This document shows, one piece after another, positions 2,594 through 45,259 of a stretch of DNA of 64,000 nt (positions are counted from its first letter, which is position 1; each line of letters begins with the position of its first letter). The DNA lies in assembly GCA_032718475.1 (NCBI GenBank), contig JAUCBJ010007214.1, positions 1-64,000 on the forward strand. The letters run 5' to 3'. The DNA comes from Nemertoderma westbladi (lineage: Eukaryota; Animalia; Xenacoelomorpha). Below the pieces are notes generated by a model. It did no database searches. It was not told the origin of the DNA and saw nothing but the letters and a program-made list of their open reading frames with translations. The position numbers were made by a program, and so were the translations under genes.

Positions 2594-5500
2594 CTGCTCC
2601 CAGAAAATGGGATTTAAGTCTATAAAATATAAAAATCACAGTTTCTAAAATACAAAAATACTCTAAACTATTAGTCCTTCTTACGTGAACGGCCTTTACG
2701 AAGTTTTTGAGGCTAGTAAGAGTCCTTTTCTCTTTGGGGCGAGCCACTTTACTAGGAGGGCTATAACTCCTGGGTGAGGGGTGCAATGCAATTGCATCGG
2801 AAGGTTTAGGATTACGGTCGGTGTATCCGCCGGTCGAGGTACCCGGTTGATCGATATCAACCTCAGTGGAACGAGGTCGAACAACCTTTAGAGCGCGTTT
2901 CAGGACAGCAGCTCTTACTGGTCCCTGATGAGTCATTTGCACGAGAGCGGTAGGTGGACCGTGAGTAGTGAGAAATTTCCTCGGTTTGATGGTTCTTTCC
3001 AACTCGAGTTATTGGGCTCTATATTCATAGCGTCGTCTGTGAACTTCCTGTAGCTCTGGATGCGAGTTTATGAATAAGTCACCATATTCCGGATCTTGAC
3101 GGATGAAGTTGATCAAGTTATAGGAATTAATGTCGTTAGGATTAATATTCCTAAGGTACTTGCGAACAAATTTGGTCGAAATGTTCTCGCCAACACGCTT
3201 CATTACCTCGTAGATAGGGGTACGAGATTTTTGCTCAACGGAAGCAAAGAGATATGGGTGAAACGCATAGACTCCTTCATAGGCACGTCCAGGGTAGTAC
3301 CGATGGCGTGATTTGCAATGGAGATCCGCGTTAGCTTCCCAGGCTCGAATATAACGCAGGGCAACCATTTCGTCTATGCTTTCTAGATCTCGGTTGAAAG
3401 GGCAATCGAAACTTGCGTGTCCTTTAAACTGGCAATGATGACATTGAGTCATAAATTGAGGACAGACTGCGAAGATGTGTAGGTTATTGAGTTTACAATA
3501 CGCACAATAGATCTCCATGGAAGATTGATCTTTAAAGTAGGAGCAGGGTACGCTGGAGTCCACCGGGGTGAAGTGATCTCGCGATGCGCATAATCGGCAA
3601 TGTTTTCTAGAAACATAATTGGCATGCCAATAATCGTATGCGGTGAGACATTGTGGACCTTGATACCATTCCAGGACGTAGTCGTTGTCACTGCTCCTGG
3701 GCACTGTGGGTTGAATCTCCTCGGACTCTAAGCAAATTGGTTCGTCTTCCAATTGCATAGCTGAGGTAGGTGTAGCTGTCTCCTCAAGTGAACCCACTGT
3801 CTGAACTTCCACGATAGAATAACCTGTGGGAATTCGGGGTCTTTGTATAACAGAGGAATGTAAGTTCTGTATACAAACAGCCTTGAAAATGGCGAATCCA
3901 GCACTGTCTAACTTCTCAGCAGCTGAGTCTCTTAGGCTGAGCTTGGTCAGAGCGCGGTCCTTGAACTGACTATCAACGTTACGGAATAGAGTCAGAAAGC
4001 ACCCAAAGCATTCGAATCGGATGAATTTATTGTGTTCATCTAACTTGGCGAGTTTGGTTCCAAGTAACAAGGGATGGGCGTGTATAGTGTGACTGCACAC
4101 ATTGGCTAGCCAACCGGCAAGTGCGGCGTTCTCGAAGATAGTGTATATAGATAATGAGGGACGGAGTGGAACACTCATAAAGCTATAAACGACGCCAGGT
4201 GCGGTTAATGGTCCGTCAAAGTATAATCGAGAATAATGATCTCCATATACTTGTTGATAGCTGACAGGGTTTCCAACTTTGAAATTCCATCCATATTCTT
4301 GGAATTCTTGTCCGATAGAGGTTCATTGTACTTTATTGATGCTGCTGGATGTATTGGCATACATAGTTCGGAAGAAACCTTGGCCTTCTGCCCAGGGAGC
4401 AATCAGCTGAGTGTCTACGGAAGGGTATGGGATATTCTCCATGTTTCTGAAGTCATTTTGGAGATCTCCATAAACAGCTGAGCCGATTTTAAGGATTCTC
4501 TCGTTAAACAGCATCTCAAGCACTGGCTGGGGTAACATCGATCCATCTATACCCATGGCCGGTTTGCGCTCGGTATCGGTAACATAACACTGCACGAGTT
4601 CGAATTGTCCATGTCGGAGATTCTTTTGTATCTCGGTGAGAGTCTCAAAAGAATAATCGATCATGTCGGAACACGCACAACACATGGGTAGAACCAGCTA
4701 GTCCACGTAAGTGTATCATTCGCGTAGTTCCCAGCTCTCCAACTGGAATGCTACCTTCGTTATCGTAAGTGACAACTCCATACATTTCGATAACGTTAAG
4801 AGTCTCGTTCCACTCTTTGGTGGTGTTTTCTATAGTCATCTAGCGCGTAGGTTGACCTCGTGTACCATACGACGGACAAGATCCGCTCGATTGTCCGGAG
4901 GCTCAATGATATACCATCGACACGAGCAGCCTCGATTGGCGGACGTTGTAACATATGAGCGTCAGCGATAAAATCTTTAGATCTTAAGTTGATGTCAACC
5001 GGTTGGGGTTGTACCGTGGCGAAGAGTTTGTCTCCGAAATGGGGAACCATTGAAGGATGAATGATGGTTTTGGAATAGAGATCAGTCATAAGGATTTGAG
5101 CTTCTGGTTGGGCTAAAGCTGCTTCTTCTCTATCATCCATTTTGATGTGTTTCTCCTTGAGCTGATTTTCCTCCGCTTGTCGTTGGAAGTGTTCGTCCAA
5201 AAACTCTTGTAGAGAGTAGGTTCGTCCAAGTTCGATATCTTCTTCGAGATTCTGAATTTCCCGATCGAACTGAGGTAAAGCTAATTCTTTTACCGCTTGG
5301 ACTTGCTGTTGCAATTTACGTTTGTCTAAACAATCGTAAGTTCCTTTTCCGATCTTTTGTCGAATAGCATCTAGCTCGTTTCGTACAATGCTCCCCTCCA
5401 CCTCGGTGACAGGTTGTATCGGGGTTAAACCAGGATGATTATACGGGTTGAACGGCGATATTAGGTGTCCGCGTCCCAATCCGGCTAGGTAGGATGGGCG

Positions 5501-6502: not shown

Positions 6503-7337
6503 AGCTGCTATATGAGTTTATCGATATTATAATTAATGATATGTAGGCCAGCGGTCGTCGCTGCCCCCCCCCCCCCCCTCAATGCCCCCGGACAGCGCAA
6601 GATCCTCAGCGCTGATTTAATGTCGTCGCTGTGCCTCTCGCCAACGTAGTAGCTACGTAACGACAACAATAACCAGCACGAGTCACTCCACTGTCTGTCC
6701 CAAGGGCTTAGATTTACTGGAGGTTCTTGCTACAGAGGCAGGGTAACTTTCACAACTGCGACTCGCTACTGTAAACACACTTTAGTAGTAACATTCACCT
6801 ATAAATACACAACTTCCACACTCCTGTCACAAATTTTACACATTCGGGCCATTTGTCCATTAGTCAAGTGCCTTCCAGAATGCCACGTTATTATTATGTA
6901 TCCCTGGATACTAGCAGGGTGCTATTTATACAGTATGCTATTCAATGGGGCAAGCTTTCTATTGTTCTTTTAACTCGCTTCTAATTCTAGCGTGGTTGTT
7001 GCTATGGTGACATTATGGAAAGCTAGAAGTAGAATTAGGGTAATTCTCATGCATACAGATCTGGGATGCTATTTAATAGTAATTCTTTAATTGTCAATAT
7101 TCCCCTTTATACATGATTTTATGAATTTTATCGGCTATTGACTATACATTGGAGATTCTCTTACACTAGTATACTTAATACGGTGAATCTCCACTCCCAT
7201 GATCTATTAATTAATGGAATTTTGGGAATGTTATAAATTGTATAAAATGACAATTTATCAAATTCATGAGAGGATATGAATTGAAAATTTATCCTCGTAG
7301 ATTTTATTATTTGATATTAAAATAGACACAATTTTAT

Positions 7338-7702
7338 TCCAGAACATGTCTGGGGACTAGGATCCTTAATTCTAGGAATTTTGTCCTTTTAAGAGTATCG
7401 GTAAGTGCTACGATATCTTAATCGACTAGAATTTTAAAGGATCTAAATTTTAACAGATTTTTGATTTACGGACTCTCCAGAGTTAATTTGTCCACATTTA
7501 CTCTATTTTAACATTTGTTTTAACAGATTTTATAAATATTTATTAAATATTTAATATTTAAGATGGGCACCGATTTAATCCAGAACATGTCTGGGGACGT
7601 TAACCACTGATTCTAGAATTTTGTCTTTCAAGTATATCGGTGGGTGCCGCGATATCTTAATCGACTAGAATTTCAGATGGTCAAAGGGTTTAACAGATTT
7701 AT
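7338..7702. repeat. Two-copy ~125-bp diverged direct repeat in the IN-accessory ORF spacer
   Basis: TCCAGAACATGTCTGGGGAC...CGATATCTTAATCGACTAGAATTT...TTAACAGATTTT at ~7338-7460 and ~7579-7702. Confidence 0.85.
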
Positions 7703-8229
7703 TTTGCATTTTAACGCTACTGTTAAATGGACATCATTCTACCTATATGTATTATTTAATATACGGTATGAGAGCAATATTGCAAGAAGCAATGACAGTG
7801 AGAAGAGGCAAGTCGTTTCCAAGGTATACCCAGAGCTTGGTTTAGCCGAGACACGAGGATCTGAACTTTGCATTCCTAATACTCTACTTACCAATAATAC
7901 TTGAGTATAGTAGGGGCGGTATTGTACTTTTAATAAGTACGGACATTTCATCTTACTGTAGTCACGTATTTATAGTATGATACGGACAGTAAGGAAAGAG
8001 AAAATGAATTATTTCTCGCCATTAATCGAAATATATAATGCTAATTAATTAAGTAATAAACATGAATAATATTGCACCAATCTACTGAATAATCGTTAAA
8101 ATAATATTCTACTAAATAAAATTAAAGAAAATGATTATAATAATAAAATTACGTAATAATACATACATAAATATAAAAATAATAAAAAAAACATAAAATA
8201 ATGTAGTCATACACCCACTCCAGATGCTC

Positions 8230-15802: not shown

Positions 15803-16091
15803 TACTCTAGTGAGTACGGCCCAGGAAGAATTAGAAGTAGATCTGGATAAACCGCTTCTGCCATCCTTGCTCCGATCTTGGGTGTCAACTCTTCAGTGTC
15901 TGAACTACTAGAGTTATCGTGCCGTTGAGAAATAAGTTCTCGGCTCGGGTGCTGCTGCTGTTTAACAGCCGCTTCTTGGTCTCGCTTAGCTTGAGCCCTA
16001 GTGCCTATAATAGACCTATGGTGCTTTACTAGCCTAGGGTCTGATACTACTACTGTAGGGATGACCTTTCTTACAGTAGGAGGGGACTTGT

Positions 16092-18076
16092 ATGTTATCT
16101 TTATAATATTCATTAAAAGGTAACCATTTCATCTCATCTCCATTGAACTTGACGACCTCTCCCACCTTTACCGCTTGACGGGCTTTGGTTCTAGCCATTT
16201 GATGTGTAAAACTTTCTTGAGCCATCGTATTATTTAATATCGAGTTATCGGTATATAAATTTCTCGGATTATGATCAGATCGGTATGGGATATCATTATC
16301 AACGGATTTATAATTACCCTTAATAGGGTTGACTATAGGAGTTTCTACTTCACTAGCAGTATAGATGCGTGTAGGCTCCACACCTTGCGCATGAAATACT
16401 TCAGACCTAACGGGTTGACACATTATTACAGGGGGTGGTGGTATACCCATTCGTATATTTACTAATTTATCGCGCTCTAAAGCGATACTTTGTTGTACTT
16501 CTTGCAACTCTAACCTACTCTCTCTCACTGTTCCCTTTAACTGCTGAACAGTCCCTTCCAATTCTCAGACCTGCTGAAAAGACCTTTGATTATGGTCTTC
16601 CAGCTGCCCGAACAGCCGATTCATCCCCCGTTGTCCCTCGTCCACCCACTCCACCGCTGAAGCGGGAGCCGCCAACATGGTAGTGGGGTGACGCATAGGG
16701 ACGATGGGAGACAAGTCATTTATGTCTTGCTCGGCGTCCAGGACTGGATGTGGTTCAGGGGCTTGTCTACTGGGCACAGGTAGTTTAGTACTGTGCAAAG
16801 GGAATTTAGAATTAGGTTCGGGAAGTACAGGGGTCTCTATCACCGGAGTGGCTTCAATGACAGGCCTAATTATTTCAGGCTCATCTACTATAGTAGGGAG
16901 TCTGTCTACTCTAATAATTCGGTCTATAGGCTCCTGATTACTTACATCTACATTAGCTAGTTGCCTTCTCACCGCAGGAGGTAAATTAGGTAACTTCTGC
17001 CGGTGTGGCGTTCTTCTACGTCCGCTTGAATGAGATTTATTACCTCCACCCTTGGGATCCGTTGTATCACCCTCATCGGAAGAGGTAAATACCTGTCTTC
17101 TGGGAGTTGATCGACTCAGTAGTTGCATCTGAGTAGCAGCTCTTTGTTTAGTTAAGTAATCTTGTTTCGCCTGAAGGTTCTCTAGCTCGAGTTGGTCTGT
17201 CGCTTCAGATGCTCTCCGTTCTGCTTCTGCTACTGCCGCTGCCGCTACCGCCTTTCTTTCGGCCTCTGCTACTGCCGCCTTTCTTTCAGCTTCTTCCGCT
17301 GCCGCTGCCGCTGCCGCTGCCGCTGCCGCCTCCACTGCTAACTTTCGGTCTTCTATTTGCCTTTTCTTTATTTTTTCTTCTTGGTCCATTACGATGAGGA
17401 TGCTTTCATCAAATTTAGCCTGCTCCGCAGCTAATATTTCCGCATCTAAAGAGTCCAACACAAATTTGGCTCCCTCACTATTGGGGTGAAGTCCAGCTAG
17501 CCTTCTCCTTAGCTCTTTGTCACCTATAAATCGTTGATAGTCCGACAGATAGATGTCAATAGCATCCTTCTTCTGAGGTTTCTCGGATGTAGCTTCGCCT
17601 TCCACCTGAGAAAAGGTAGCGTCTGTTGATTCTCCGTGGGTCATGCGCTCAGTTAGCTGAACTTTCCATTGTGTCGTTCCCTGGACTTTAAGACTCACCT
17701 GTTGGAACCAAGTCTTTACGGTACTTGGTTTCTCTTTGAGGCTTCCTCAAAGGCTGAAAGGATTAGTCTGATCCGTAAAATTCGTTCTCGCACTTGATAA
17801 AGCAGCTCTCCCTGCTCTTGAGGTCCTTGACGTTGTTGAAATAGGTGTTCTTCTAATCGCTCCAAAGAGCTGAAGAATCCCTGGACATATCCTACTGCCG
17901 ACCTCTTCCATACAGCTGGATCGCGGGTGTCCCTTACTATTCCCATCCTGTATAAGTCTTCCCAGGCAGCTTCCGATAAGTTGATCGGGAGTCCGGGTCT
18001 GGGGAAGTTCCATTGCGTCTCGACAATAGACCTCAGTTCCTCCATTGTGTATCCTGCATAACTGTCCCTGGTCGAT
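16092..18076 (-). pseudogene. gag: Second, partial tandem copy of gag in element A
   Basis: ORFs 17716-18138, 16565-17698 and 16034-16561 repeat the N-terminal half of the 11756-15802 Gag; junctions at ~16092 and ~18076. Confidence 0.92.
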
Positions 18077-18800
18077 CCGCTTATACCATTACTCAGTGTA
18101 ACGTGATATATAATTAATATTAAAATACCGGTATACACTTATAGTATATATAAGTATTATTTACAGACTATGATCGGTCACAGAATACCGGTATATAATT
18201 TCAGCCTAAATTTATATAAATAAATATAATAAGCCTACCGTAAATACCGGTAATTTCAATTATTTAACAATAACTGAATTTCTGAATTTTAGGGTTACTT
18301 CCCTTCACTTTAGTACTGATATTAAGCAGTAGTTCAACTGATATTAAGACCTAATTGATGTATAACAGGCCTACTATTTTATAAATCTGTTTGAGTTGAT
18401 TTATAAATATGTATATACCCGTACAATGGGTTTTGACAATGTTTGAAATAAATGTTATTATTTCTAGATAAGGAGTCACTACACAGAAGCTGAACGCTCT
18501 CAGTGGAGTGCTACTTGCTGGACACTAATACAGATATTTATACTTTACTAAGTTACTTATCACTACAATTTACTTGCAATTACTAACGGGTTGAGATTAC
18601 AATCTCTAAATAAACAATAAACAGGTTACACGTACAATTTTTAGGGTAATTTTACAAGAAATCTACAAACCAGCCTAACAAGGAGTTAGAATTTCTGGTT
18701 CTTACAAACTGACAGGAAACTACGGTATTTGAAAACAATAAAGCAGTAGTAAGTAAGTTGCGTTGTCCAGATAAGGAAATACCACCGTCTGACTACTTAT

Positions 18801-19740
18801 TTTTTATTTTTTAAACTATAGCCGTATATTTATTATTAAAGCTTGTAAAAACAGCTGATGCACATCAGATCGCATAGCAACCACCACCAACAACCAGACA
18901 AATATACACTGTTAAATTAATACTACAGTTAGTATATGATACTGTCTGACTGTCCTCCAAACTTGGAGGGTTGTTATCCACAGTCACCTACGCTGGGTTG
19001 CAGTCGGCATTGCTGTGGATGATCGACTCCACGTCGCACCGAACCGGACGCCGCTTAGCTGATCGACAGCCGCGAAGGCACAGGAGGGCTGACTGCAAAA
19101 GGGCGAAACTCAACCTCCTGCGAACCCACACAACACACTCTGAATAGCGGACCTCGCGTTTGTCAGCTAGTTTCAACGCGAGACGCTTGATAAACTGTGT
19201 GGCTGACGGTGAAGCTCCACCAAACGCAGAGAATATAAGGGGAGTGAAGCTGGCGTGCTCCACCTCCCTCAACCGCTCTTCGTATTTGAGCCTCTTGCGA
19301 GACTCATGGTGTAGGTGGGATGCCGGAAGGGACATCGCGGCGTTGGTGTCCGCCAGCGGGTTGAAGACAGACACGTCGATGAACGTTTTCCGGAAACGGT
19401 TTCCCCAGAATCCGCTCACCGACACATCCAGCCTCGCCTGCTGGTCCGTCGATGTCGACCGATGGCTGAACATCTCGCCCGATAGTGGCTGCAGAAGCGG
19501 TTCCACCCCGACATTGTGTGCCACTTCCGTCAGGGTATCGGCGACGAAATCGCGAATCTCGTTGTGCCGTATGGAGGGGAACCCTCCGGTGGGGCACGAC
19601 AGCACGTGGGACGAAGTAAATCGCACCCCACAGGCACAACGAGACGGTAAATTTCGCGGCGTCCACCCGTAGCGGAGGCACAGGGAATCATGGAACCCTT
19701 CCTTGTCGAGGTGAGTATCCTGTAAGGTCATCGGCTTATA
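18801..19740 (-). mobile_element. 5'-truncated RLE-type (CRE-clade-like) non-LTR retrotransposon inserted in the leader of A
   Basis: 12-bp TSD CTGACTACTTAT at 18789-18800 and 19741-19752; A-rich tail at 18801-18812; empty site in element C at ~46242-46253. Confidence 0.9.
18988..19731 (-). CDS. C-terminal CCHC knuckle + restriction-like endonuclease domain of the non-LTR element
   Basis: CACG....SSHVLSC, RHNEIRD, RLDV...FIDVSV, KRLKY, FTPLIFSAFGG motifs typical of RLE domains. Confidence 0.88.
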   Translation of the reverse strand: MTLQDTHLDKEGFHDSLCLRYGWTPRNLPSRCACGVRFTSSHVLSCPTGGFPSIRHNEIRDFVADTLTEVAHNVGVEPLLQPLSGEMFSHRSTSTDQQARLDVSVSGFWGNRFRKTFIDVSVFNPLADTNAAMSLPASHLHHESRKRLKYEERLREVEHASFTPLIFSAFGGASPSATQFIKRLALKLADKREVRYSECVVWVRRRLSFALLQSALLCLRGCRSAKRRPVRCDVESIIHSNADCNPA

Positions 19741-20544
19741 CTGACTACTTATAGTCTTAGCTCTATAAGTACTACGTTATGTACCCGGAGTTTCCTTACC
19801 TAGAGGTTAATTACCGAAGCCAACCAGAGCTAACGTGCCTATTAACCACGTTACAACACAAATATACTGCCGACACACTAAATTACTTTCGGAAAGCACT
19901 GTACTCTAAACCCTAAATTAGGTACAAGTACTTATACAACAAATAACCAGCAGTTAAATATACTTGAACAGCCAAAAGAACCACAGTATCTGCTGGATTG
20001 ACCGGAGCACAAAATCACCAGTCTTTACCTACGCCAAGCAGCCCTGATGTAGTACCGGGGTTAATTTAACTATAATGGTATGTATAACAAGCACTATTAC
20101 TGTAGGAATAAACTTGGGGAGTTGGAGGTTGCGAATACTCGCATAGACTCTGAATAATAAATATTACGCTACCCTTGCAGACTATTTAAACAAAACACAG
20201 ACCAAATGCTGGCAGACTACTGTCAAGCCTAAATAAACTACAGTATATGCAGACTCCGAAATGGTTAGTTAGTAGGCGTTCTAACTGAGTAGTACGACTT
20301 ATTCTTTCGGGGGGGGATTTACCTTACAGCACTGGATGCCCCCACCTTACTAACTAGCACTTTATCGGACAGACACTCTACACACACTGCAATCGCCTCA
20401 GACCCAACAACAGTTAGACAACAATCCGGCCTACAAATTATTTATACAATCTGAGCAGGCTTACACGCCTTCTGCTCAATATTACACTTACAGATAAATA
20501 TAACTGACAGAAATAAGTAAAATCTCAATAAAAACCAGGGCTGC

Positions 20545-22015: not shown

Positions 22016-23214
22016 TGTAAAAGCTTTTGCGGACATAACAAGTCATTTTTCCCAGCAATGCGCAGTGTAGGTGCTTTAGCAGACATAATCAGTCATTTTT
22101 GCCGCAATGCGCATAATACTCTAAAAGATTGGAGCTCAGATGACGAAATCTGTCAGCTGGTTTCCTGTAAACGTGGAACTTTTCTTTGTTCTGCCTAATC
22201 AGCCAATCAGAGCGATTTTCACTTTATTTCTGATAGAGGCCTATGGAAAACCACGCAATGCATTATGGTCTTTGTTTACCTTTCTGAGCCTAAGAACTGG
22301 CTTGGAATTCTTCTGTGCTTCTGTTTTGGAAGTTTCAGACTTTGGCCTAAACATCTGATGGCTTTGATTACAAGAACGTAAATCTATTATCTGCATATAC
22401 TGGAGCACTATTTCCTGAAACTCATGGAACATTACTGAACAACTTGCCTCCTCAACTATTTCCTGGCTGCATTTACCTGACGAACTGATTAAACTCAATG
22501 CATTACGTAACACATACTGACTGTTCATCGCATTATTTTACTTCTGTTATTAATTGTTATTGTATTGATGTATATTGCTGATATATTTGGAGAATACCGA
22601 TGAATAATCATAAAACCCCCAATCTTCTTGATTACTGAAGGTGAGAGGAACAGGTTACCGGTAGCAACTGCGACTTACATTATAGTGGTTTTGTGTGAAT
22701 TAAATGCTATTTCATAATCTCTACAAGTGTCAGTTGCAATCTTCCTTATATATGATCAAATTCAGTGACGGTCGGCAGATCAGTGTGCAGTAGTGTGAAG
22801 TAGTGTGAAGTCGTGTGAAGTAGTGTAACAGATAATAAATCATCTCCTAAAGAATGCGCTATTTACGAAACTCAGTAGCCATCTAGTTGTGATTAGTATA
22901 AGTTATAACTCTATTTTTATACTTAAAGCGCCATGTCCTAAAGGAACTGTTAATATTTCCCCGAAAGTAAATATATTTGTCAGGGATTATATAGTAACGA
23001 TCAATCAAATAATACAGTAGGTCTACACCGCAATAACTTTCAAAGCACCCGAATCCAGTCTCCCTTAACTGTGGGTGAATGATCGCGCACAGACTGGCTT
23101 CGGCGGATGTAACTTCAGTACATTAAATAAACGATATAGGCTAAAGTCGATTTATAAACAAGAGGACAACTAAAATTGGCAGGTTAAACTGCTAAAGGTC
23201 TAAAAGCGCAAACA
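22016..23214 (+). repeat. 5' LTR of element C
   Basis: Reverse-complement homolog of the A LTRs, with a ~50-bp tandem duplication near its start that is shared with the 3' LTR. Confidence 0.93.
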
Positions 23215-23225
23215 ATAATAGATTT
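23215..23225 (+). promoter_or_regulatory. Non-tRNA primer-binding site of C (ATAATAGATTT), complementary to LTR 22380-22390
   Basis: Directly follows the LTR CA; no TGG; perfect 11-nt complement AAATCTATTAT inside the LTR. Function inferred. Confidence 0.65.
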
Positions 23226-23329
23226 TGTTCTTTATTGCACAGTAGGCAATAAATATAGTTGTCTATTGTTCTGGTAAGAACATTAATAGTTTTAAACTCT
23301 TGATTGCACAGTAGGCAATGAATATTTTG

Positions 23330-23890
23330 TGTGACGGGATCTAAGAAGGATCCCGGTTTATCCGCGGTTATTGTATTTACGCGTCCCCACCGTGTGTGTG
23401 TGTGAAAAGAGTCTGGGAATTCTGACGTTATTGATCCTCCGATATGTATAATGCGATAGATAGTATAAAATGGATATAGTATAAAATGGTTGAAACCCAA
23501 ATGATGTAATACAGTAGTGTACAGGTAAATGGTGGTAGGCGAGGACGGTAATAGAAGTCACCGCTCTACCCTAGCTAACCGACTAACATAAATGAGATAA
23601 CTGAACCGAATACTGATACCTAATAATATATATTGCACGGTTTGGCCGTTGTTACAGTACCTAGCCGGTGCCTTCCTCCCATTGGCTAATATCCCTGTTG
23701 GCACCCTTTGGAGTGTTTCCCCTCACTCCTGCTATTCTCTCTCGGTCAGGGGTATGGCCCCTGACCCCTATTGTGTGTTTCTCCTTCCCACTCTGTTGGG
23801 GTGGCACGAGGTTGGGTAATTAAGCTCGTGCTCCCAATATTGCTTAACGGCTTACTTTGTGGGGTGTTAGCGGAATTGAATAAGCTAACA
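23330..23890 (-). repeat. 3' LTR of element B
   Basis: Near-identical to 44701-45259. Confidence 0.96.
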
Positions 23891-23899
23891 CTCCCCCCC
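23891..23899 (-). promoter_or_regulatory. Polypurine tract of B (GGGGGGGAG)
   Basis: Immediately precedes the 3' LTR on the minus strand. Confidence 0.9.
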
Positions 23900-24616
23900 A
23901 TGCTATCTTCCCGGTGAGAAGACTTTAGACTTTAGGCATCCACCTAAAGTGCGCTCAATTCCGCTGGATCCCGATCTATTATCAGGTGTGGGGTGGAACT
24001 ATTTTTTCAGAGCCGGTTTTCCAGACCGCCCCCTATGGGTATGATATCGCTACCCGGTTCGCCTGGCGTCCCATGTCGGGCCGATCGTACGCTCCTCTCA
24101 CACGACTTTTGTTTCCCCAACACTTTCGCCACTTTAACTCCACTCTGTTCTCACCCTGACTCTCCTCTACTTCTCCTCACTTCAGCTCTAACTCTCGGAC
24201 TTCCCTGTCCCTCACTCAGCCTCTTATTCCTCCCACACACTTGAATTGCATTCGCACTCTCTCCGCACTCCACACTATCACCTTTACTCGAACCCTCTTT
24301 GACTACCTTATTCCCTCTGACGAGTCTCACCCCCCCCCCCCCCCCCCCCTCCTGTGCCGTCGCACTCAAGAAGTGTGAAATCGTCTGGTGTCTCGTCCAT
24401 AGTACCATAGTCAGTTAGCCCCACAGTCCCAGTAGCTAATTGAGAAAGGTTGTATGACTATAGTACTTACTTCGAACGTATATTTCATTACTAAACTACT
24501 GATTGCTACGTACGTACATACAAATTGCACTTATTTGATTATTTAGATTACTTAAATTTGTACTTAATAGTTCGCACGTCCCATGTGGCGCCTTCCAGGC
24601 GTACCACATCGAAGCC

Positions 24617-25915
24617 TCAGTTTATCCCTCCTGACTTCGGGAACCACCTCAAGTCTTTCCCTCTGCCGTCCTCTTCCCTGGGTCGTTTCCTGGTCACTAC
24701 CGCTCCTCTGGGATCCGCTTTCTGTCCTCGGACCCTCGCCGCCACCTCCTTACTGATCCCGGTTGTCGGCTCCTTGGGCGCTGCTGTTATCAGTGCCCGG
24801 TAACGCTCTGCGGGTGGCCCCTCCGAATGGCCTTGCTGTCTCCCCCTGGTGGCGTCCCATAAGATCATCTTCATCGCCCGCGGCACATGCTCCGCCAAGA
24901 AATCCCTAAACTCCCCTCGGTTCTGTGGCGTCCACCTGTCCAAATACCTTTGCGTATTTATCACCCCGGCATACAACGCCGCCGTTGCTACCTCTTGATA
25001 GGTAAACGGTAACCTCCGCTTTATGATCTCCAAGTGGGCCTCCTGATTGATAAGGAACAAACCCCACTTGAACTCATGGGCCTTCATGCGTTGCCGCGTC
25101 ATGGCCCCAACGTCGGCCCACTCCTCGAAGGTTCTGAACTTCTCTTCATCGTCCATCCAGTCGCACTGGCATCCGTAGTGTCCCCGAAAGTTACACTTCG
25201 AGCATCGGTTATGCAACTGTGGACATGCTCCCATCCTGTGGCTCGTCTCGTGGCAGTAGAGACATCTGGTCCCTCTCTGGAACCAGAACTGGCCTGTGTT
25301 CTCCACTACTCCCAACTCGTCCGGTGCTGTCATAGCCATGAAGACCACCTGCATGTCCAGAAGGTTGGGGGTGTCCGGACCGATGATTCTCTCCGTGTCT
25401 TCGCGAATCGCCGATCCCACCTTCGTCGTCGACTTCTCTCTTACCAGGACTTGCACCGCTTTCGGCAACCGGTTTAATTTCGGCCCGTCCTTGTTCCCAT
25501 ACGTTCCTAGGTCGAATAAGAAAATGTCTCCATTTGGTGCGGCCAAATGTAGGAGTATGGTCCTGGCCGACCCCGCTGATCCTCGTCTCGAACCCTCCTC
25601 ATCTTCCACGGTTCCCTCGTCGTCTAGGATCATATATCCTCCCCTGTTGATGGACTCTATGAACCTCTTCCAATCTTTCTTCGGCGACTCCCTCGCGTAC
25701 TTCGGAATCCCGAACTTCGCCTCGTCCCCTTTCACCACGTAGTGGAAATGTTGGAAGATCGCATTGTCCAGCGACGGCATCCCGTAGGTCCCGACCAGCC
25801 GCTGTTCGTGCATCTCCCTGAAGTGGTCCTGCAGCGCTCGTGCCGCGTGACCCTTTTCCAACCGCTCGTAGTTTCCTCTCATCTTCTCTTCCGGATGCCT
25901 CTTGGTGAAATCCAC
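24617..25915 (-). CDS. Accessory protein of element B: DEDDy/RNase D-WRN-like exonuclease (ExoI, ExoII) + two CCHC knuckles
   Basis: MILDDEG, LLHLAAPNGDIFLFDL, LPKAVQVLVREKSTTKVGSAIRED, LLDMQV; CLYCHETSHRMGACPQ, CSKCNFRGHYGCQC, FEEWAD. In-frame ATG at 25972 lies upstream of a single TAA. Confidence 0.82.
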   Translation of the reverse strand: MDFTKRHPEEKMRGNYERLEKGHAARALQDHFREMHEQRLVGTYGMPSLDNAIFQHFHYVVKGDEAKFGIPKYARESPKKDWKRFIESINRGGYMILDDEGTVEDEEGSRRGSAGSARTILLHLAAPNGDIFLFDLGTYGNKDGPKLNRLPKAVQVLVREKSTTKVGSAIREDTERIIGPDTPNLLDMQVVFMAMTAPDELGVVENTGQFWFQRGTRCLYCHETSHRMGACPQLHNRCSKCNFRGHYGCQCDWMDDEEKFRTFEEWADVGAMTRQRMKAHEFKWGLFLINQEAHLEIIKRRLPFTYQEVATAALYAGVINTQRYLDRWTPQNRGEFRDFLAEHVPRAMKMILWDATRGRQQGHSEGPPAERYRALITAAPKEPTTGISKEVAARVRGQKADPRGAVVTRKRPREEDGRGKDLRWFPKSGGIN

Positions 25916-26377
25916 CAGTATCTCCTTTCCTCCTTATTCCGCCTTTCTCTTTCTGATCAGTTTTCCCGCCATTCTGAACACTCTCACTCGCTCACCTGTA
26001 AGGTGGTGCCTTACCAAGGCGCAATACAGATGAGTGATAAGTTTATGATGGTCTGTACAGTTTGAGAATGGCCCATTTCTACTTAGCTCTGAGTTATAGC
26101 CTAAATTTTCTTACTACTGTTACCATGATTTGTTCTCTTTTAGCCCTATTCTTATTTAATTTTAATTTAATTTTAATTTAATCCTACTGCTTACTGTTTA
26201 TGGATTATTCTATTTCATAATCCACATTCTGACCTACTCTGTGGGCCTGTGCAGTACAGCAGTATATGTCGTGTGGCCTACACGATTTATCCAACTGTAC
26301 TCATATGCCCCCCTCTCGCTACTAACTGCTAACTAATATCCATATTATACATATCCCTTCTACCCCTATTACTAATC

Positions 26378-27054
26378 GGTACTACGTACCCTCCTACTAA
26401 CCTCTAACTAACTAGCGGTACTACGTACCCTCTAACTCTTACTCTCTCTAACTAACTAACTAGCGGTACTACGTACCCTCTAACTCTTACTCTCTCTCTC
26501 TCTAACTAGCGGTACTACGTACCCTCTAACTACTCTAACTCTACTAACTAATGGTACTACGTACCCTCTAACTCTTACTCTCTCTCTCTCTAACTAGCGG
26601 TACTATGTACCCTCTAACTACTCTAACTCCACTAACTAGCGGTACTACGTACCCTCTAACTCTTACTCTCTCTCTCTCTAACTAGCGGTACTACGTACCC
26701 TCTAACTACTCTAACTCCACTAATGGTACTACGTACCCTCTTACTACTCTCTAACTAACGGTACTACGTACCCTCTAACTACTCCACTAACTAACGGTAC
26801 TACGTACCCTCTTACCACTCTTACTCCACTAACTAACGGTACTACGTACCCTCTTACTACTCTGACTCTACTAACCACCGGTACTACGTACCCTCTTACT
26901 ACTTCTCTAACACCTCTAACTAACTAACTCCTATCTCTCGGTACTACGTACCTCCTAACTAACTAACTGACTAACTAACTCTCACTCTCGGTACTACGTA
27001 CCTCCTAACTAACTAACTAGCTAACTAACTCTCACTCTCGGTACTACGTACCTC
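26378..27054. repeat. Minisatellite: 16 copies of the hairpin motif GGTACTACGTACC with variable CTAA/CTCT-rich spacers
   Basis: Counted by eye; one copy reads GGTACTATGTACC. Confidence 0.92.
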
Positions 27055-36022
<8,968 letters not shown>

Positions 36023-36123: not shown

Positions 36124-39100
36124 CTAAGGTGCCCCTTCTAATAGACAGCATTTCCCTACAGCTCTCCTGTAGGTTTTTCTGTCCTTCGCACCTATCCTGC
36201 CACCTATCCGCACTTCTACCGATCGGACTCTTCCGTCCTCATCGGAGTAAGTGCCTACAACTCTCACCAACCGCCACTGGTTGTTGATGATAGTATCATC
36301 CGTAACGATTACGAGATCTCCTTCTCTTAACTCCCTATTCGACTTCCTCCACTTGCTTCTTTTGTGAAGCGTGGGTAGGTATTCCTCAACCCACCTCCTC
36401 CAATACTCTGCGCTTATTGCTTTAGCGACTTTCCAACTCTGGCGGGAGTGTATGTCATCTGGGTCTACACCCCGCATATCGATGGTCGCTGGCCTTTCCA
36501 TTAGAAAATGGCTGGGTGTCAGCACATCTAATGACTCAGGGTCATCATTCTCCGGATATAGCAGTCTGCTATTAATGCACTTCGCAAGTACTGTTCTCAA
36601 GACGTCCTCCGTGACCATGTGGGTGTTCATTAACTTCGTCATGAGACGCTTCGAACTGCCCACCAGTCTCTCGACGCATCCTAGTGTATGTGGTGCATAC
36701 GGCGTCCTTCTCTCCCACTTTACCTGTCGTCGTCTCATGGCTGCCCTGACTTCCTCCCCTTCCAAGATGTCCAAGGCCTCTGCCATCTCGTTCTCTGCTC
36801 CCACAAAGTTGGTTCCGCTGTCGGAGTACATTACTGCGATCGTCCCACCTTTGTGGTCTCTGAGCCCTTCTAATGCATTAATGAATGCTGATGCGGTTGC
36901 ATCTTGGGCGAGTTCTATCCCTACCGCCCGCGTGTTGTTGCATACGAAGATAATACCGTAGCGTTTCTCCGTGTGCCGCATCACCTTGATCTTTATCGGC
37001 CCGAACATGTCCACACCACAATGCGTAAATGGCGGGTCGTGCTGTCTTACCCTACTCGCTGGTAGTGGTGCCATCTCCTGTATGGTTCGCTCCTTCTTCG
37101 CTCGTCGGCAGGTCTGGCACTGCCCCACTACCGCTTTTACCTTCTTCCTCAACTGCTTGACCCAAAAGGTCCTCCGTATCTCCGTAAGGGTTCGGTTGGT
37201 GCCCCCGTGCAATATCGACTTGTGGGAGTCCCAGATAATCTGGTGGATTATTGGCGATCCTGTGGGAATGATGATGGGTTTCGGTGGTATGACTATGCTG
37301 TTGTTGTATCCCACCCTGGAGTTCATTACTAGAATCCCGTCGTCATTAAGTTGTGGTGACAGCGTGATCAGCTCGCTGTCCCGTCGGATATGCTGTTGTT
37401 TACCGACGCATTCCACCTCGTCGCCATAGCTCTTCCGTTGTTCATAGCGGATTACTGCTTTGGCCGCTCCTTCCAGATCTGTTGTTGTCCTGATCTTCTT
37501 GCATTTGCCAACTCCCGCGAGGAAATTCCCGAAGGCTCTCCAGTACGCCACTAATTTCTTGGTATTATACCAACTAGAGCTGTAGCTGAGGAGTTTATCC
37601 GTCGGGTTATCGCACAGTTCTACTGGTTTAGGTTGCACGTCCCTTATCTCCCTCACCATCTGGGAGTATATCTCTTCTCCCTTTGAATCTCCCTCTTCTC
37701 CCTCTGATACTGCTTCTCCCGAGCCCGGGTCCACCTTTCTCATCGGCGGCCAGGCCTCCTTGTCGCTCAGAAACTGTGGCCCATGTTGCCACAATTCTTC
37801 CTTTTTTAAGAAAGAGTGACGTGCCACGCCCCTCGATAACAAGTCCGCTGGATTCTCGTCCGTAGGGCAGTAGTGCCACCTTCCTAACTCTGTGGTCGCC
37901 CTTATTTCGTCCACTCTATTTGCGACGAATATAGGGTATCTCATCCTCTCATTGTGTAACCAGCCAAGCACTACCATGGAATCCGTCCAGTAGTGTGTCT
38001 CCACTATGTTGGGAATAGCGTCCATTATGTAGGCTGTGGCCCTAACTCCTAGGCTCGCTGCTGTTAACTCTAGTTTGGGAACCGATGCCGAATCTGGTGG
38101 CGTTGACTTCGCCTTGCTGAAGGCAAGTCTGGGCTTATGAGGCCCCTCTTGTTGTACTAAATAGAGTGCCGCTCCGTATGCCTCTAGTGACGCATCGGAG
38201 AACATGTGCAGATCCAGGTTCGTCATGTCCCCATCCGGGAAATACACTCGCGGCATGCTGTATGTTCCCATCTTCTCCAAGCCTTCTGTCCACTTACAGC
38301 ACTGTTTCTTGATCTCTTCTGGTACCTCTATGTCCCACTCATCCTTCAGTTTGTATACTCTCTTGAGTATCTGTTTCCCCGTGACTAATAGTGGGGATGC
38401 TAGGCCTAGGGGATCGTATATTCTCGCTATGTATGATACATAGCCTCTCTTTGTGTGGATGTCTGCGCCCTCCTGGCTCAGCTGGTACTTCAGTTCATCT
38501 GTCTCTCTGTTCCGCACGATTCACAGTGCCTTCTGTTGAGACTCTGTCCTCTTATTCGCCATGTCCTGCCCTTTTGCTGTTGTGGGATTATCCATGGTCG
38601 ATTCTGGTCTCTCATCCTCCATCGCCTTGATAAATTCCTCCGAATTGGATTGGAATTTGGTCAGGTTAAAGCCGGATCCTTTTAGGATGTCACGAACCTC
38701 GCGCCCTGTGTCCAGTATCTCCTTAACCGTGTTCCCAGAATCCATTCCGTCGTCTACGTAGAAGCCGCGTCAAATCATATCGACGGCCCTAGTGCTGTAT
38801 TTATCCTCCTTTCCCTTCACTGTATCTCTTACTGCCATAGTCGTCGTAAATGAAGACGACTTGGCTCCCATGTTCTGTACTATCATCTTGTACGTCGGTA
38901 CAATCGACGGTTCTTCATCGCCGTTGTACCATAAGAAGCGTTGGCTATCGCTATCTTCTTCCGTTATACGGACTTGGTTGAACATGCCCTCTATATCACA
39001 GGTGAAGGCGTGTTTCCCATTCCTGAATCTAAGTAGGACCTCGATCCCCGAGTTGTAGATATTGGGACCCTCCCGCAGATAGTCGTTTAGGCATTTTCCG

Positions 39101-40272
39101 TTAGTCTTGGCCGATGCGTCAACTACCATCCGCAGTTTACCTTTCTTCGGATCTAAAGCCACGTGGAGTGGCAGGTAATATGTCCTGTCCGTATTTGGTT
39201 CGTCGACCGGCAACTCCACGGCCCATCCTTTCTCGACGTACTTCTTAATCGTTCTGTGGATGTACTCATTCTTCTTGGGGCTCCGTTTTAGTGTCTGCTT
39301 CAGCTTGCGGAGCCTCGTGAGTACCATCCCTCTATTATCGGGCAGTGGTAGCTTCGGTAGCTTCCATACCATTCCTATGGTGTACCGCCCCTCGTCGCAT
39401 TTCATAGACTCCTCTACGCTCTGTTGAGCCTGTTTGTCTTCCACCGAGGTCCCGACCCCGGTCTCCTTTAATCCTTCAAAATCCTGTCTGAGCAGTCTTT
39501 TAAGCTGCTCCTCTGCTCTCTCATCACTCATTTCCTGCATAGTTCCCGCGAACATGCATCCTGATGTCTCCGACATCCTAAATGGTATCTTGCTCTTGAT
39601 TGGGCCGCTCAGCGTCCACCCGAATGGTGTTAGTATTGCCACCTGGTCACACTGTCTGTCTTCGCCGAAGACCGTTTGCATTCTTTCGTGGGCTGTCGGG
39701 CAGTCCATTCCTACTATGATGGATACCTTCCTAACGTCCACCTCTGGGATTGAGAAGTCGATATCATCCAGAAATTTGTATTGTTCGACCTCGATGTTGG
39801 TTGGCCGTCTGGCATTGATGTTTATTGATTCTATCACTTGGATGTGGTCGATGGTCGCCCCGTAGTCACATCCTGGTGCCACCGCTGCAATTGCGCACCG
39901 TCCGGTTCTCATCTCCAGGATCTCATCTTTGCTAGAGATGGTTGTTACCGCCATTCTACTCGGCCTCGTTCTCAATCCTATCTCTTCGGCCACCCAATCC
40001 TCGATTAATGTGAAGGCAGCTCCACTATCAACCAGCATCAGTGTGGTTACTGATCGATTGCCTTCTCCAATCACTCGCACCGGTAGTACCCCAAGTAGCA
40101 CTGTTCCTCTCTTCTTCGCCCCTACTGTGCTCATTGCCATTGTTTGGCCTTTCCTTTGACCGAACTTGACTGGCGTCTCCTTGCATTGCCTAGCTCTATG
40201 TCCACTCATCACACATCGCGAGCAGATCTCATTTCTCGCCGCATATTCTACCTGATCTTCTCTGGGTAGCAC
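36124..40272 (-). pseudogene. pol: pol of element B (protease, RT, RNase H, integrase), with in-frame stops
   Basis: LVDSGA; YYLPLH, RMVVDAS, DIEGMFNQV; YVDD at ~38749-38760 just past a stop; HMFSDAS, PKLELTAA, WTDS, NPADLLSRG; H..LHGG..CQTC, GVDMFGP, SDSGTNF, VERLV. Confidence 0.95.
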
Positions 40273-40355
40273 TTGCTATCCTATAGTTTGGCATTAACCG
40301 TTCTAGCAGTTGTTCCTACTATTGTTATTTTAGACAAGGCGTGCTTCGAGGGACA

Positions 40356-43300
40356 CTATCCTCTTTTCTTTGCCCCTACGGTGCTCGTTGCCATCGTCTG
40401 CCCTTTGCCCTGACCGAACTTAATTGGCGTTTCTTCGCATTGGTCGGCTCTGTGTCCACCCATCACACATCGAGAACAAATTTCATATCTCCTCGCGTAT
40501 TCTACCTGATCTTCCCTGGGTAGCGCTCGCCAGTACCTGCAGTTCATGGTTTGATGAAGCGCATTTGTATGTAGCTGGCATTTGCTCTTTGGGTTGTAGC
40601 CGTCCTTATACAGTGCATTGCGTATCGCAGCTGCGTTTGTACCAAAGTCCCTACTATTCTTATTGTTTGGGTTCGGCCTACTGGACGTACTGGGGTTATA
40701 TTTATTTGTGTTGTTATTGTTCCCCTGTCCGTTCCATGGTGTGGTCTTACCTTCGGCTACCTGTGGACTTGCAGTCCCCTGCGTCGCTGCGTATGGCAAT
40801 GAGTGCCTGAGCTTTGGTAATGCGTTTGACGTGTTGTGCTCTGGCCTCGGTCTATGGTAATCCGTCTTCGGTCCCTTTCCCAGGCTATCTTCGCTATAGA
40901 CTGGGTCGGTTATTAGTTCAGCTTCGTAGTTTAAGAAACTTGACATTTCCTCCAGACCCGGTTCCGCACCCTTCCTATCTCGAGTGGAGAAAGCGATTTT
41001 CCTCCACTTGTTGCGCAGCCAGATCGGTAGTGCCTGCGCTATCGTGGTGATGTTGTTGGACGCGTTGAGCTCGTATGGCGCGTCTAGCGTCTTTAGTACG
41101 ATTAGCGCCTTTTCGACTTTGTTAGCGAACGTCTTAATGCTAACGGGGTTATCCTGCAGGCCACCCGAAGTTATGCCTCTCAGGGTTTGCCTGATGATCT
41201 TGGCCGGGTGCCCGTATTCCCTGTCCAGTGCCCGCCATGCCGTCGTGAAGCCGCCCTCTATGCCCTGGTATTGCCTCACGATGTCGTATGCTGGGCCTCC
41301 TGTGTATACTTGCAGATATTTTAGGCACTCCGCCTGCGTCAAGTTCTTTGTTAGTATTTCGTTACTATACATACGCCGAAACTGGAGATACTCCTCCGGC
41401 CTACTCCCATCGAATTTGAATGGTTCCATGGGTGGTAACTCGATCCTCGTTTTTAACGCATCGATCAACGTGGCCATCCCCATCGCCTGCGCTTCCAATG
41501 GGTTCGATGGATGTTGTATAGTTTCTCCCGCTGGGTGTGTTCCGTCCGTCCTGCTTTCTGCCTTCCTTTGGCTTGGGTATATCATTGGGGGTAGCGGCCC
41601 CCTCCATATTTCTGTGTCGCATGATCTATTTTCATCCAACGGTCTCGTTGATCTTGCTCCTATCGGGGTATATTGTTGATATTGTGATGGGGGAATGTCA
41701 CCCTGCCCCCCCCCCCACCGGTATGTTTGGTACTGGGGTTGATGTTAATATATTGGGGCCCATCCACCTATCCGCAATAAATCCCCCCTCCCCTGGGTAT
41801 ATGTTATGTCCTTGCATGCTGTAGTCATACTGCTGTACTGGTACCGGTATAGGCCTATCATCTTCTGGCCTACCTGCCGGTATGTACTCTGTGACTTCCG
41901 GGTTTAATCCCGTCGACCGCGCTATCCTATCGCCTACACGATTCCTGTCAGCATGGCCTATGGTATGTGCAGTAAGGCCTACAGTATGTCCTACAGTCTG
42001 TATGTGTCGCTCGGGATCGAAGTTTATTCTTCTCGAATAATCCTCCCCGCGGCTACCGTATTCTCGATCGGTAGGTATATCCCGTCGGAAAGTTTCTCTT
42101 CGACCCCCTCTACTGCTCTCGTCTTCGTACCGGTACATCGTGTACCCCTCTCTCGACGCGTGATGCGCCTCGTCAGGTCGCGTCTCTCCAGGACGACGGC
42201 AATCTCCCGAAGTTCGACCCCACCAACACTCTCTTTCCATCTCGACTACCAACGGCTCGCTATCCGTCCTCGCTCTCCTGTCGTTCGCGGCGATACTTCT
42301 CCTGCTGTCTTCTCTTCTTCTCCTTTCAGTGCAGTATTCCGGCTCGTGAGATCTCTCGTCGACCTCCCGGTTAAACCCCACTGTTCTTCTTCCCTCTTCT
42401 GATCGGGCTCGACGCTTCGTCCGCCCTCTCGTGACGTCAATCTGCCTCTCTCTGCTCGATCGCACGCTGCTGGGGATACTCGCAATCCCCCTATCACTCT
42501 CCGTCGCCGGGAGTTGCGGTTTACCTATTTCGGCCCGCGCATTATCCACCGACGCCTGTGGGACACTCTCTGCCCCCCCCTCTCGCCACTAACTTCTCGC
42601 TGTGGGGCTCTTGTAGCCCCCCCCCCCCCCCCCCCCGCTCGCCACATATCACACCACTACCTCTTACTTCTCTTCTACACCCCTCTCCAGTCAACACAAT
42701 GTTTCTACTGCGGCTGGGTTCGCTTACCCCTGCCTCTCTCCCCACTACTACTTGGCCTATCGGGCCTACTCCGGGTTGGCTCAACCCCGCCACCCCCTGC
42801 CTACTAACTACGTGGCCTACCAGGCCGCCGTTGGCTCGACTCAACCCCGCCACCTCCTGCCTACTAACTACATGGCCTACCAGGCCGCTGTCGGGTCGAC
42901 TCAGCCCCGCCACTTCCTGCCTACTAACTACATGGCCTACCTGGCCGCCACCTGTCGGGTTATACACTTCCGACGCGTTCACGTTAATAGCACCTATATT
43001 AGAAACGGAATTATTTTGTTCGTTTGAAATAAAATCATTTGAATTATTTTGCGCGACTACACTATTTGAATTATTTTGTAAATTCGGGTTTGGATCATTA
43101 TTTAAATTATTTGAGTTATTATTATTTTCTAAATTTAAATTACTATTCGGGTTATTTTGCACGTTTAAATTGAAATTATTATTTAGGTTATTTGTATTTA
43201 AATTTAAATTACTACTACTAGGTAAAGTATTTCCTGCAATAAAAGCTTGGTTAGGATCATCCAATACGGTACTATTAATATTAACGTCGTCTGCTGTAGT

Positions 43301-44700: not shown

Positions 44701-45259
44701 TGTGACGGGATCTAAGAAGGATCCCGGTTTATCCGCGGTTATTGTATTTACGCGTCCCCGCCATGTGTGTGTGAAAAGAGTCTGGGAATTCTGACGTTAT
44801 TGATCCTCCGATATGTATAATGCGATAGATAGTATAAAATGGATATAGTATAAAATGGTTGAAACCCAAATGATGTAATACAGTAGTGTACAGGTAAATG
44901 GTGGTAGGCGAGGATGGTAATAGAAGTCTCCGCTCTACCCTAGCTAACCGACTAACATAAATGAGATAACTGAACTGAATACTGATACCTAATAATATAT
45001 ATTGCACGGTTTGGCCATTGTTACAGTACCTAGCCGGTGCCTTCCTCCCATTGGCTAATATCCCTGTTGGCGCCCTTTGGAGTGTTTCCCCTCACTCCTG
45101 CTATTTTCTCTCGGTCAGGGGTATGGCCCCTGACCCCTATAATGTGTTTCTCCTTCCCACTCTGTTGGGGTGGCACGAGGTTGGGTAATTAACCTCGTGC
45201 TCCCAATATTGCTTAACGGATTACTTTGTGGGGTGTTAGCGGAATTGAATAAGCTAACA
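44701..45259 (-). repeat. 5' LTR of element B
   Basis: TATA-like ATATATATTA (~44993-45002) with a TCAGTT initiator-like motif ~25 nt downstream (44973-44978) on the minus strand. Confidence 0.96.

Follow-up and report, generated by a model that had tools for sequence, protein, structure and literature searches.

The question raised by this locus is whether a long open reading frame (ORF) on the minus strand of a 64,000-nucleotide stretch of Nemertoderma westbladi DNA (contig JAUCBJ010007214.1 of assembly GCA_032718475.1, positions 1 to 64,000; hereafter the window) is a one-off capture or a conserved gene of the retrotransposon that carries it, and what kind of protein it encodes. The frame, called ORF3 here, lies in a long terminal repeat (LTR) retrotransposon, element B. 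An earlier interpretation made from the letters alone, the sequence-only reading, had likened it to a frame in a second retrotransposon of the window, element A. We find that the frame is probably an env-position ORF3 of a Bel/Pao element and belongs to an unnamed family in which an RNase D/EXD2-like DEDDy exonuclease domain is followed by zinc knuckles and a helical tail, this particular copy being probably deleted and predicted to be dead. The frame and its parts are listed below, with profile positions taken from a hidden Markov model (HMM) of the family.

24617..25933, minus strand: ORF3 of element B, a frame of 438 codons from stop to stop, ending in the stop codon at 24617-24619
25331..25678, minus strand: predicted DEDD-type 3'-5' exonuclease domain, N-terminal half, which matches family HMM positions 75-183 with 33.2 bits
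25613..25630, minus strand: ExoI motif I-L-D-D-E-G (D87-x-E89, numbering of the 421-residue protein), from the profile alignment with the D-x-E of EXD2 and the motif table
25397..25423, minus strand: ExoII motif K-V-G-S-A-I-R-E-D (Asp162), from the profile alignment with EXD2 and the motif table
25264..25301, minus strand: junction of a likely internal in-frame deletion, from the gap in the HMM match and the loose ends of contigs
25163..25264, minus strand: two CCHC zinc knuckles, C207-x2-C-x4-H-x4-C220 and C227-x2-C-x4-H-x4-C240, from alignment columns and profile matches
24923..25129, minus strand: conserved helical C-terminal domain (FExxADxG..T..R....WGFF, then LPF.Y.E), from the HMM and a model with a predicted local distance difference test score (pLDDT) of 83-91

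The first ATG is at 25882 and gives a protein of 421 residues. The sequence-only reading had placed the frame at 24617..25972; its lower bound is right, while its upper bound runs 39 nt beyond the frame, which ends at 25933. All of the motifs that it named are present in ORF3 of element B, namely LDDEG, LLHL, LPKAV..KVGSAIRED, the two C-x2-C-x4-H-x4-C knuckles and FEEWAD. The spacing of the CCHC zinc knuckle is conserved. In an alignment of 20 sequences C207, C210, H215, C220, C227, C230 and H235 are invariant and C240 falls in the class of at least 90% conservation; with 56 sequences H215, C220, C227 and C230 remain invariant and C207, C210, H235 and C240 are in the latter class.

When ORF3 of element B was compared with the pieces of the frame in element A by BLASTP, the knuckle block (E 3e-7), the ExoI piece (E 5e-4) and the ExoII piece (E 0.06) were matched, all of them collinear. 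No similarity to B was seen by BLASTP in the piece of A at 5686-4796, and the upstream pieces of A (6094-4796) gave E 0.11 at best against all of the relatives. When B was used as a phmmer query against 1.84 billion representatives, 54 proteins reached E<=1e-3, with a lowest E-value of 1.1e-11. Most of these align to residues 202-321 of B, which hold the knuckles and the FExxADxG..T..R..WGFF tail, and the long relatives (620-970 residues) align to the N-terminal part as well. Two proteins, P0018, a multi-knuckle protein, and P0022, which has 1,546 residues and was matched over 32 of them, were excluded from the alignments as unrelated.

A family HMM was built from 19 relatives (alignment A2) with B left out. 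It scores 141.8 bits on B as a whole, in two collinear stretches: residues 86-201 match profile positions 75-183 with 33.2 bits and residues 222-367, the knuckles and the C-terminal domain, match positions 537-657 with 104.6 bits. On element A the same HMM gives 22.3 bits for 4697-4323 (positions 134-190) and 25.3 bits in all for 4322-3009, 24.5 of them for the knuckles (positions 505-579); the ExoI piece of A is marginal (-0.7 bits, positions 77-117). The maximum in 200 shuffles of B was 1.0 bit. Judged from their sequences, the frames of A and B belong to one protein family, and the homology claimed in the sequence-only reading is borne out both by the pairwise matches and by the profile from which B was left out. 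The family comprises 50 or more sequence clusters undetected by Pfam. A word-indexed protein search found nothing with B or with A, and with alignment A2 only P0037, which is already in the alignment. Scans of metagenomes with B and P0054 gave no confirmed locus, and scans of viral contigs with P0026, P0054 and a degenerate knuckle pattern gave nothing.

The nature of the N-terminal part was investigated by comparing the family profile with the PDB. The best match is EXD2 (6k17_A, E 1.3e-11), in which the D-x-E of ExoI and the Asp of ExoII are aligned with those of the family. It is followed by the RNase D of Trypanosoma brucei (7c45_A, E 2.3e-7), where both the exonuclease and the CCHC parts are aligned: on 7c45_A/7c42_A the exonuclease positions 71-197 correspond to 32-153 and the knuckle positions 472-534 to 254-317. 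Other matches are the knuckles of Lin28 (E 1.7e-4), Egalitarian (1.3e-3), WRN (0.014) and several Gag or nucleocapsid chains (0.007-0.05). The frame of A, read through, gave only chance-level matches to PDB sequences (E 0.15 or worse).

Structure prediction is in keeping with this. An AlphaFold model of B from the single sequence was useless (pLDDT 32.8), whereas the model made from 56 sequences has a pLDDT of 82-90 at residues 70-170 and 83-91 at residues 220-350. In a Foldseek search with this model, DEDD-type exonuclease domains occupy 49 of 50 ranks, the exception being 1vk0_A at rank 45; EXD2, TbRND (the T. brucei enzyme), Egalitarian, EXD1, Rrp6, Nibbler and WRN are among the matches. 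The probability falls along the list from 1.00 to 0.18 (0.99-1.0 at the top), with E<=0.001 in three matches only. By VIA, which is independent of Foldseek, residues 44-186 of B superpose on EXD2 with Z 10.1 and a root mean square deviation of 4.0 over 116 aligned residues. The next row has Z 6.6, and ranks 2-32 are chains with a DEDD-type exonuclease domain except for one (1vk0_A, rank 6). Two Atlas look-ups, to be taken as leads only, pointed to a kinetoplastid cluster with PF01612 and zf-CCHC (scores 0.80 and 0.86). For the helical C-terminal domain, which the structure search probed scantly, no clear structural match was seen (Z 3.6-4.0) and a new fold is not claimed.

The portion of the domain present in B would thus appear to have the RNase H-like alpha/beta fold of these exonucleases. 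Of the residues that define the DEDDy group, B has the D-x-E of ExoI (D87-D-E89) and the Asp of ExoII (Asp162) but lacks the Y-x3-D of ExoIII, which holds the fourth acidic residue and the Tyr; in A the latter motif reads Y-x3-E. Neither B nor A nor the 20 relatives reach the gathering threshold of PF01612. As modelled, ORF3 is a member of the DEDDy/DnaQ-like 3'-5' exonuclease superfamily, at the superfamily level only, and to that extent the label of exonuclease given in the sequence-only reading is right. Of the 17 relatives in A2 whose sequence spans ExoI, 9 retain the D-x-E; of all 19, 10 retain the Asp of ExoII and at least 11 a Y/F-x3-D/E. Eight have all three catalytic motifs, and in eight the site is clearly degenerate.

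ORF3 in Bel/Pao elements

Element B extends over 23330-45259 on the minus strand, as established by comparison of the window with itself and by alignment of the LTRs; its pol (36124-40275) and its 3' LTR enclose ORF3. The landmarks of element B, and the homologue of ORF3 in element A, are as follows.

23330..23890, minus strand: 3' LTR of element B, with TG..CA ends, from self-comparison and LTR alignment
44701..45259, minus strand: 5' LTR of element B, from self-comparison and LTR alignment
36124..41744, minus strand: gag (DUF1759) and pol (aspartyl protease, Peptidase_A17, integrase zinc-binding domain and DUF5641) of element B, from Pfam
3009..4839, minus strand: ORF3 homologue in element A, with a frameshift within 4645-4697 and a stop codon at 4323-4325

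The two LTRs of B are 97.5% identical, have TG..CA ends and are enclosed by a 5-bp target duplication, TTTTG, at 23325-23329 and 45260-45264. Element B is assigned to Bel/Pao on account of the gag and pol domains listed above. Peptidase_A17, DUF1759 and DUF5641 were matched in A as well as in B, and both elements are Bel/Pao LTR retrotransposons. The Gag of A has Cys/His motifs of its own.

Element A is present twice in the window, once on each strand. The minus-strand copy (~1505-21634) has its 3' LTR at 1505-2594 and its integrase at ~8230-9600, and ORF3 is found between the two. It is broken into three pieces: 4839-4645 carries YDNEG and MIHL, 4697-4323 carries LPQPV..KIGSAVYGD, and 4322-3009, past the stop codon, carries the ExoIII-like Y-x3-E, the knuckles and WEANAD. 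The plus-strand copy, into which B has been inserted, has its 5' LTR at 22016-23217 and its internal part at 45474-60324. It lacks ~4.6 kb (59652-59840 compared with 3085-7687), which removes ORF3 except for its last ~25 codons (frame 59746-60255), so that no copy of ORF3 in the window is at once full-length and intact. The frames of A and B do share position and strand, as the sequence-only reading had it, both lying on the minus strand between the pol or integrase side and the 3' LTR. The high divergence that it saw between the Pol and LTRs of the two elements is likewise found: the pol proteins are 30-36% identical over 220-315 residues, and a blastn comparison of the LTRs of A with those of B showed no similarity.

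Further carriers came from genome bins of prokaryotes, in which a degenerate pattern of the knuckle block matched 57 stretches. Six of the 57, from two bins, are strong members by the family HMM; a further locus, L037, was not counted as its 18.4 bits fall on 20 profile positions. The six form three near-identical pairs, L016/L044, L041/L030 and L006/L057. Their contigs are 98-99% identical between two 'bacterial' metagenome-assembled genomes (MAGs) and are fragments of eukaryotic Bel/Pao retrotransposons; the identity of L006, L016, L041, L030, L044 and L057 across bins indicates contamination by one eukaryote.

Both of the loci that have upstream sequence, L016 and L041, show a Bel/Pao pol (RVT_1, Peptidase_A17, integrase and DUF5641) upstream of ORF3 on the same strand, directly abutting it in L041 and 318 nt away in L016. 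The DEDDy-like gene is therefore found in the position of an extra ORF in A, B, L016 and L041. Because these two unrelated contigs carry ORF3 directly behind a Bel/Pao pol, ORF3 is regarded as a gene of the lineage and not a one-off capture, as the sequence-only reading had proposed; diverged Bel/Pao elements from at least two hosts have it as a conserved third gene.

The pol of L016 and that of L041 are 44% identical, and those of the window elements are 23-32% identical to either. ORF3 is more diverged than pol, with an identity between A and B of ~30% over only 69 residues, and in the four elements for which both are known the order of relatedness is the same for the two. Within these four, L016 and L041 are each other's closest in pol (44%) and in ORF3 (E 5e-33), though the ORF3 of L016 is nearer still to that of L006/L057 (29%, E ~6e-62), for which no pol is known. 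The long retention of ORF3 asserted in the sequence-only reading is consistent with these data, which would also allow exchange between elements: the comparison of four elements is compatible with vertical descent alongside pol and with exchange among elements. The protein shows signs of purifying selection at the sequence level. The ratio of nonsynonymous to synonymous substitution rates in the three near-identical pairs is 0.50, 0.12 and 0.23, and of the differences among copies of the B family 32 of the 55 listed sites are at third codon positions (P 1.4e-4).

The segment absent from element B and alternative explanations

In the match of B to the HMM, profile positions 184-536 (~350) are represented by only ~20 residues. 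The absent part comprises the ExoIII-bearing latter half of the nuclease fold, a low-complexity linker and the first knuckle. The sequence-only reading had noticed that a segment with ExoIII is missing, which is correct, and had put it at ~250 residues, which is too small. All the other relatives examined have the segment, that is the 19 in A2 together with A, L016, L041 and L006. As it lacks ExoIII, the B copy of ORF3 is predicted from its sequence to be catalytically inactive.

Contigs of the same species from four sequencing runs (X1, X2, X3 and X5) were compared with the ORF3 region. At an identity of at least 80%, 6,056 contig pieces from X1, 3,818 from X2 and 3,658 from X3 fall on 23300-26400; the B family is high-copy in its species, since thousands of pieces match at 80-100% identity. 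The contigs diverge from the window to either side of the junction, with loose ends in X1, X2, X3 and X5 at 25264/25284 behind it and at 25290/25293 before it, and among the contigs listed none bridges 25284-25290. Depth also drops at 25263-25301, an observation that plays no part in the argument. Because the contigs break at the junction and every other relative examined has the segment, we favour, with fairly good confidence, a frame-preserving internal deletion specific to this copy over a short form common to the lineage.

Were the short form instead the normal state of the B lineage, ORF3 would be a natural pseudo-nuclease, with ExoI, ExoII and the knuckles serving as an RNA-binding module in the manner of EXD1 or Egalitarian. 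The sequence-only reading had offered both an in-frame deletion and such a dead RNA-binding form, and of the two the deletion is favoured and the dead form less so. An uninterrupted frame of 438 codons spanning the junction, where some depth persists, would fit the latter, as would the loss of catalytic residues in many relatives (8 of the 17 covering ExoI have no D-x-E) and the presence of the inactive RNA binders Egalitarian and EXD1 among the structural neighbours. It is hard to reconcile with the presence of the segment in the 19 relatives of A2 and in A, L016, L041 and L006, and with contigs from four runs that diverge on both sides of the junction, none of those listed bridging it. Half of an alpha/beta fold would moreover probably not be stable, and in the model the pLDDT drops below 50 at residues 177-203. 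We therefore regard a lineage-wide short form as unlikely. It has also to be considered that A and B gained ORF3 separately, by capture from host genes or by transfer from one retroelement to another, and that the shared position is simply where extra genes are tolerated. The combination of nuclease, knuckles and FExxAD tail is, however, common to A, B, L016, L041 and L006 and silent in Pfam in all of them, ORF3 stands behind a Bel/Pao pol in all four elements of known context, and the pairing of L016 with L041 in both genes fits co-divergence, even if the ORF3 of L016 is nearer to L006/L057. Separate gain thus seems improbable to us, despite the far greater divergence of ORF3 between A and B than of pol (~30% over 69 residues compared with 30-36% over 220-315) and despite the precedent of the DEDDy ORF3s of bdelloid rotifers, for which at least two acquisitions and sharing between element classes have been inferred (PMC5408684).

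One might finally ask whether only the CCHC block is truly shared, the exonuclease motifs being chance look-alikes. Pairwise support for the N-terminal part is weak (E 5e-4 and 0.06), Pfam is silent and the ExoI piece of A scores -0.7 bits against the family HMM. The scores of 33.2 bits for residues 86-201 of B and 22.3 bits for 4697-4323 of A, set against at most 1.0 bit in 200 shuffles, and the match of the profile to EXD2 (E 1.3e-11) and of the model to it (Z 10.1) contradict this, and we hold it to be very improbable.

Several points weigh against the reading that we prefer, that of a deleted copy of a nuclease-and-knuckle ORF3 family of Bel/Pao elements. No significant Pfam match was obtained for B, for A read through or for the 20 relatives (weak knuckle matches only), and phmmer of B alone against PDB sequences found nothing. 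The exonuclease call rests on the profile and the predicted structure because Pfam and the PDB search with B alone are silent, and the Foldseek matches, which extend over ~120 residues only, have moderate E-values (1.7e-4 to 1e-3). Since 8 of the 17 relatives covering ExoI have no D-x-E, selection may be for a function other than nuclease activity. The genomic context is known in four elements only, A, B, L016 and L041. As for the deletion, the contigs from which it is argued are short, none was seen that carries the undeleted form from end to end, and a hypervariable stretch at the junction could yield similar loose ends. The substrate of ORF3 and its benefit to the element, which are taken up below, we infer only, by analogy.

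Comparison with known proteins and a possible function

The closest parallel is with the retroelements of bdelloid rotifers. A DEDDy-type ORF3 has been described in the LTR retrotransposons Juno and Vesta and in the Athena/Terminon Penelope-like elements, and a Cys-His-Cys zinc motif has been noted in the ORF3 of Vesta2 and Vesta5 (Rodriguez et al, 2017; PMC5408684). Such ORF3s are cited as known accessory domains in two further articles (PMC6338049, PMC6431247). The present ORF3 is like those of Juno, Vesta and Athena in being an RNase D-like DEDDy gene in the position of an extra ORF, without transmembrane or env features, and in having catalytic residues that are partly altered (DEED in bdelloids and Y-x3-E in several members of the present family). 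It is unlike them in its carrier, which is a Bel/Pao element with Peptidase_A17, DUF1759 and DUF5641. Neither Juno nor Vesta is known to belong to Bel/Pao. It is further set apart, as far as the descriptions go, by at least two canonical CCHC knuckles, by the helical FExxAD tail and by the silence of PF01612. In the literature searched, which did not extend to subscription papers or Repbase notes, no report of a DEDDy exonuclease gene in Bel/Pao elements was found. New with respect to the bdelloid ORF3s are thus the Bel/Pao carrier, the canonical knuckles together with the conserved C-terminal domain, and a family that is invisible to Pfam.

In the order of its domains the family resembles TbRND (PDB 7C42-7C4C; PMC7797062), in which a DEDDy exonuclease is followed by a C-terminal CCHC domain and which lies in the nearest Atlas cluster. 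TbRND differs in being a cellular mitochondrial enzyme that trims the U tails of guide RNAs, without retroelement context, long linker or FExxAD tail. Going by sequence, the likeness may reflect descent or convergence. The exonuclease domain of EXD2 (6K17) is the best match both by profile and by structure, yet EXD2 is a host DNA-repair and RNA nuclease without knuckles, the identity is only ~20% and B has no ExoIII half. EXD1 and Egalitarian, which are inactive RNA binders of the exonuclease fold, share with many members and with the B copy the absence of catalytic residues; Maelstrom is named as another such protein in PMC5408684. Unlike ORF3, EXD1, Egalitarian and Maelstrom are host proteins of PIWI-interacting RNA (piRNA) biogenesis or mRNA transport, and the sequence kinship shown with it is at the superfamily level. 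The knuckles have the C-x2-C-x4-H-x4-C spacing of those of retroviral nucleocapsid and Lin28, although the nucleocapsid knuckles are in Gag and those of ORF3 sit behind a nuclease domain.

These comparisons suggest what the protein might do. Full-length members that keep the D-x-E, the Asp of ExoII and the Y-x3-D/E would be knuckle-guided 3'-to-5' exonucleases acting on the 3' ends of single-stranded RNA. By analogy with TbRND, the knuckles would hold single-stranded RNA and pass its 3' end to the DEDDy site. In TbRND the C-terminal CCHC domain raises RNA binding and cleavage, with a preference for uridine (PMC7797062). The likely substrates would be the RNA of the element itself or small RNAs of the host, and candidate roles are the removal of 3' tails added by the host to the RNA of the element, the trimming or destruction of host small RNAs, and the processing of 3' ends during reverse transcription. 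Degenerate members and the truncated B copy would at most bind RNA through their knuckles, as EXD1 and Egalitarian do. ORF3 is presumed to be expressed in the way of env genes, through a spliced subgenomic RNA.

A more specific idea, which we put forward tentatively and consider rather doubtful, is that a clade of Bel/Pao elements has a TbRND-like knuckle-guided exoribonuclease as a counter-defence, which would strip 3' uridine tails or trim or destroy piRNAs and small interfering RNAs and so blunt post-transcriptional restriction, with degenerate members serving as RNA decoys or adaptors. LINE-1 is reported to be restricted through uridylation by TUT4/7 (PMC6191937), and similar functional ideas are voiced, without tests, for the bdelloid ORF3s (PMC5408684). 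Genes other than env are rare as additions to LTR retroelements and mostly unexplained, and a domain order shared with an enzyme that trims RNA tails provides a concrete, testable idea of how ORF3 could benefit a retroelement. A profile of the family would also improve the annotation of repeats in invertebrates and help to flag eukaryotic contigs mis-binned into bacterial MAGs.

Other features of the elements

The remaining features of element B nearest to ORF3 are as follows.

23891-23899: purine run adjoining the 3' LTR of element B, between ORF3 and the LTR
26369-27095: minisatellite of 35-60 bp units flanking the (TAAC)n array
27056..36019, no strand assigned: perfect (TAAC)n array of 8,964 bp (2,241 units) between pol and ORF3 of element B

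The array grades into the minisatellite, which is rich in the TAAC unit; its purity over 9 kb may be due to very recent expansion or to an artefact of assembly. Upstream of the gag of B, at 41698-44540 on the minus strand, there are long open frames of low complexity, Asn-rich and Arg/Glu-rich and without a Pfam family, within which tandem repeats of 60 bp occur at 42747-42949.

Element A is unusually long (~20 kb) through tandem duplications of the gag region, which are seen in both copies (13758-15762 with 16089-18084, and 47839-49135 with 49168-50440; identities 96.8% and 86.8%). The plus-strand copy has an insertion of 2.8 kb in pol (54760-57570) that is not in the minus-strand copy and that contains an ORF at 56179-56811 on the plus strand with a PWWP domain (PF00855, E 4.1e-10). 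Conversely, an insertion of ~940 bp at 18800-19741 is found in the minus-strand copy and not in the other; its ORF, at 18988-19776 on the minus strand, is an intact frame of 247 residues, Cys/His-rich near its start and without a Pfam family. L016, which carries ORF3, has a further accessory domain in its Bel/Pao pol (3539-9538, minus strand), a deoxynucleoside kinase domain (PF01712, E 6e-46) that precedes the reverse transcriptase.

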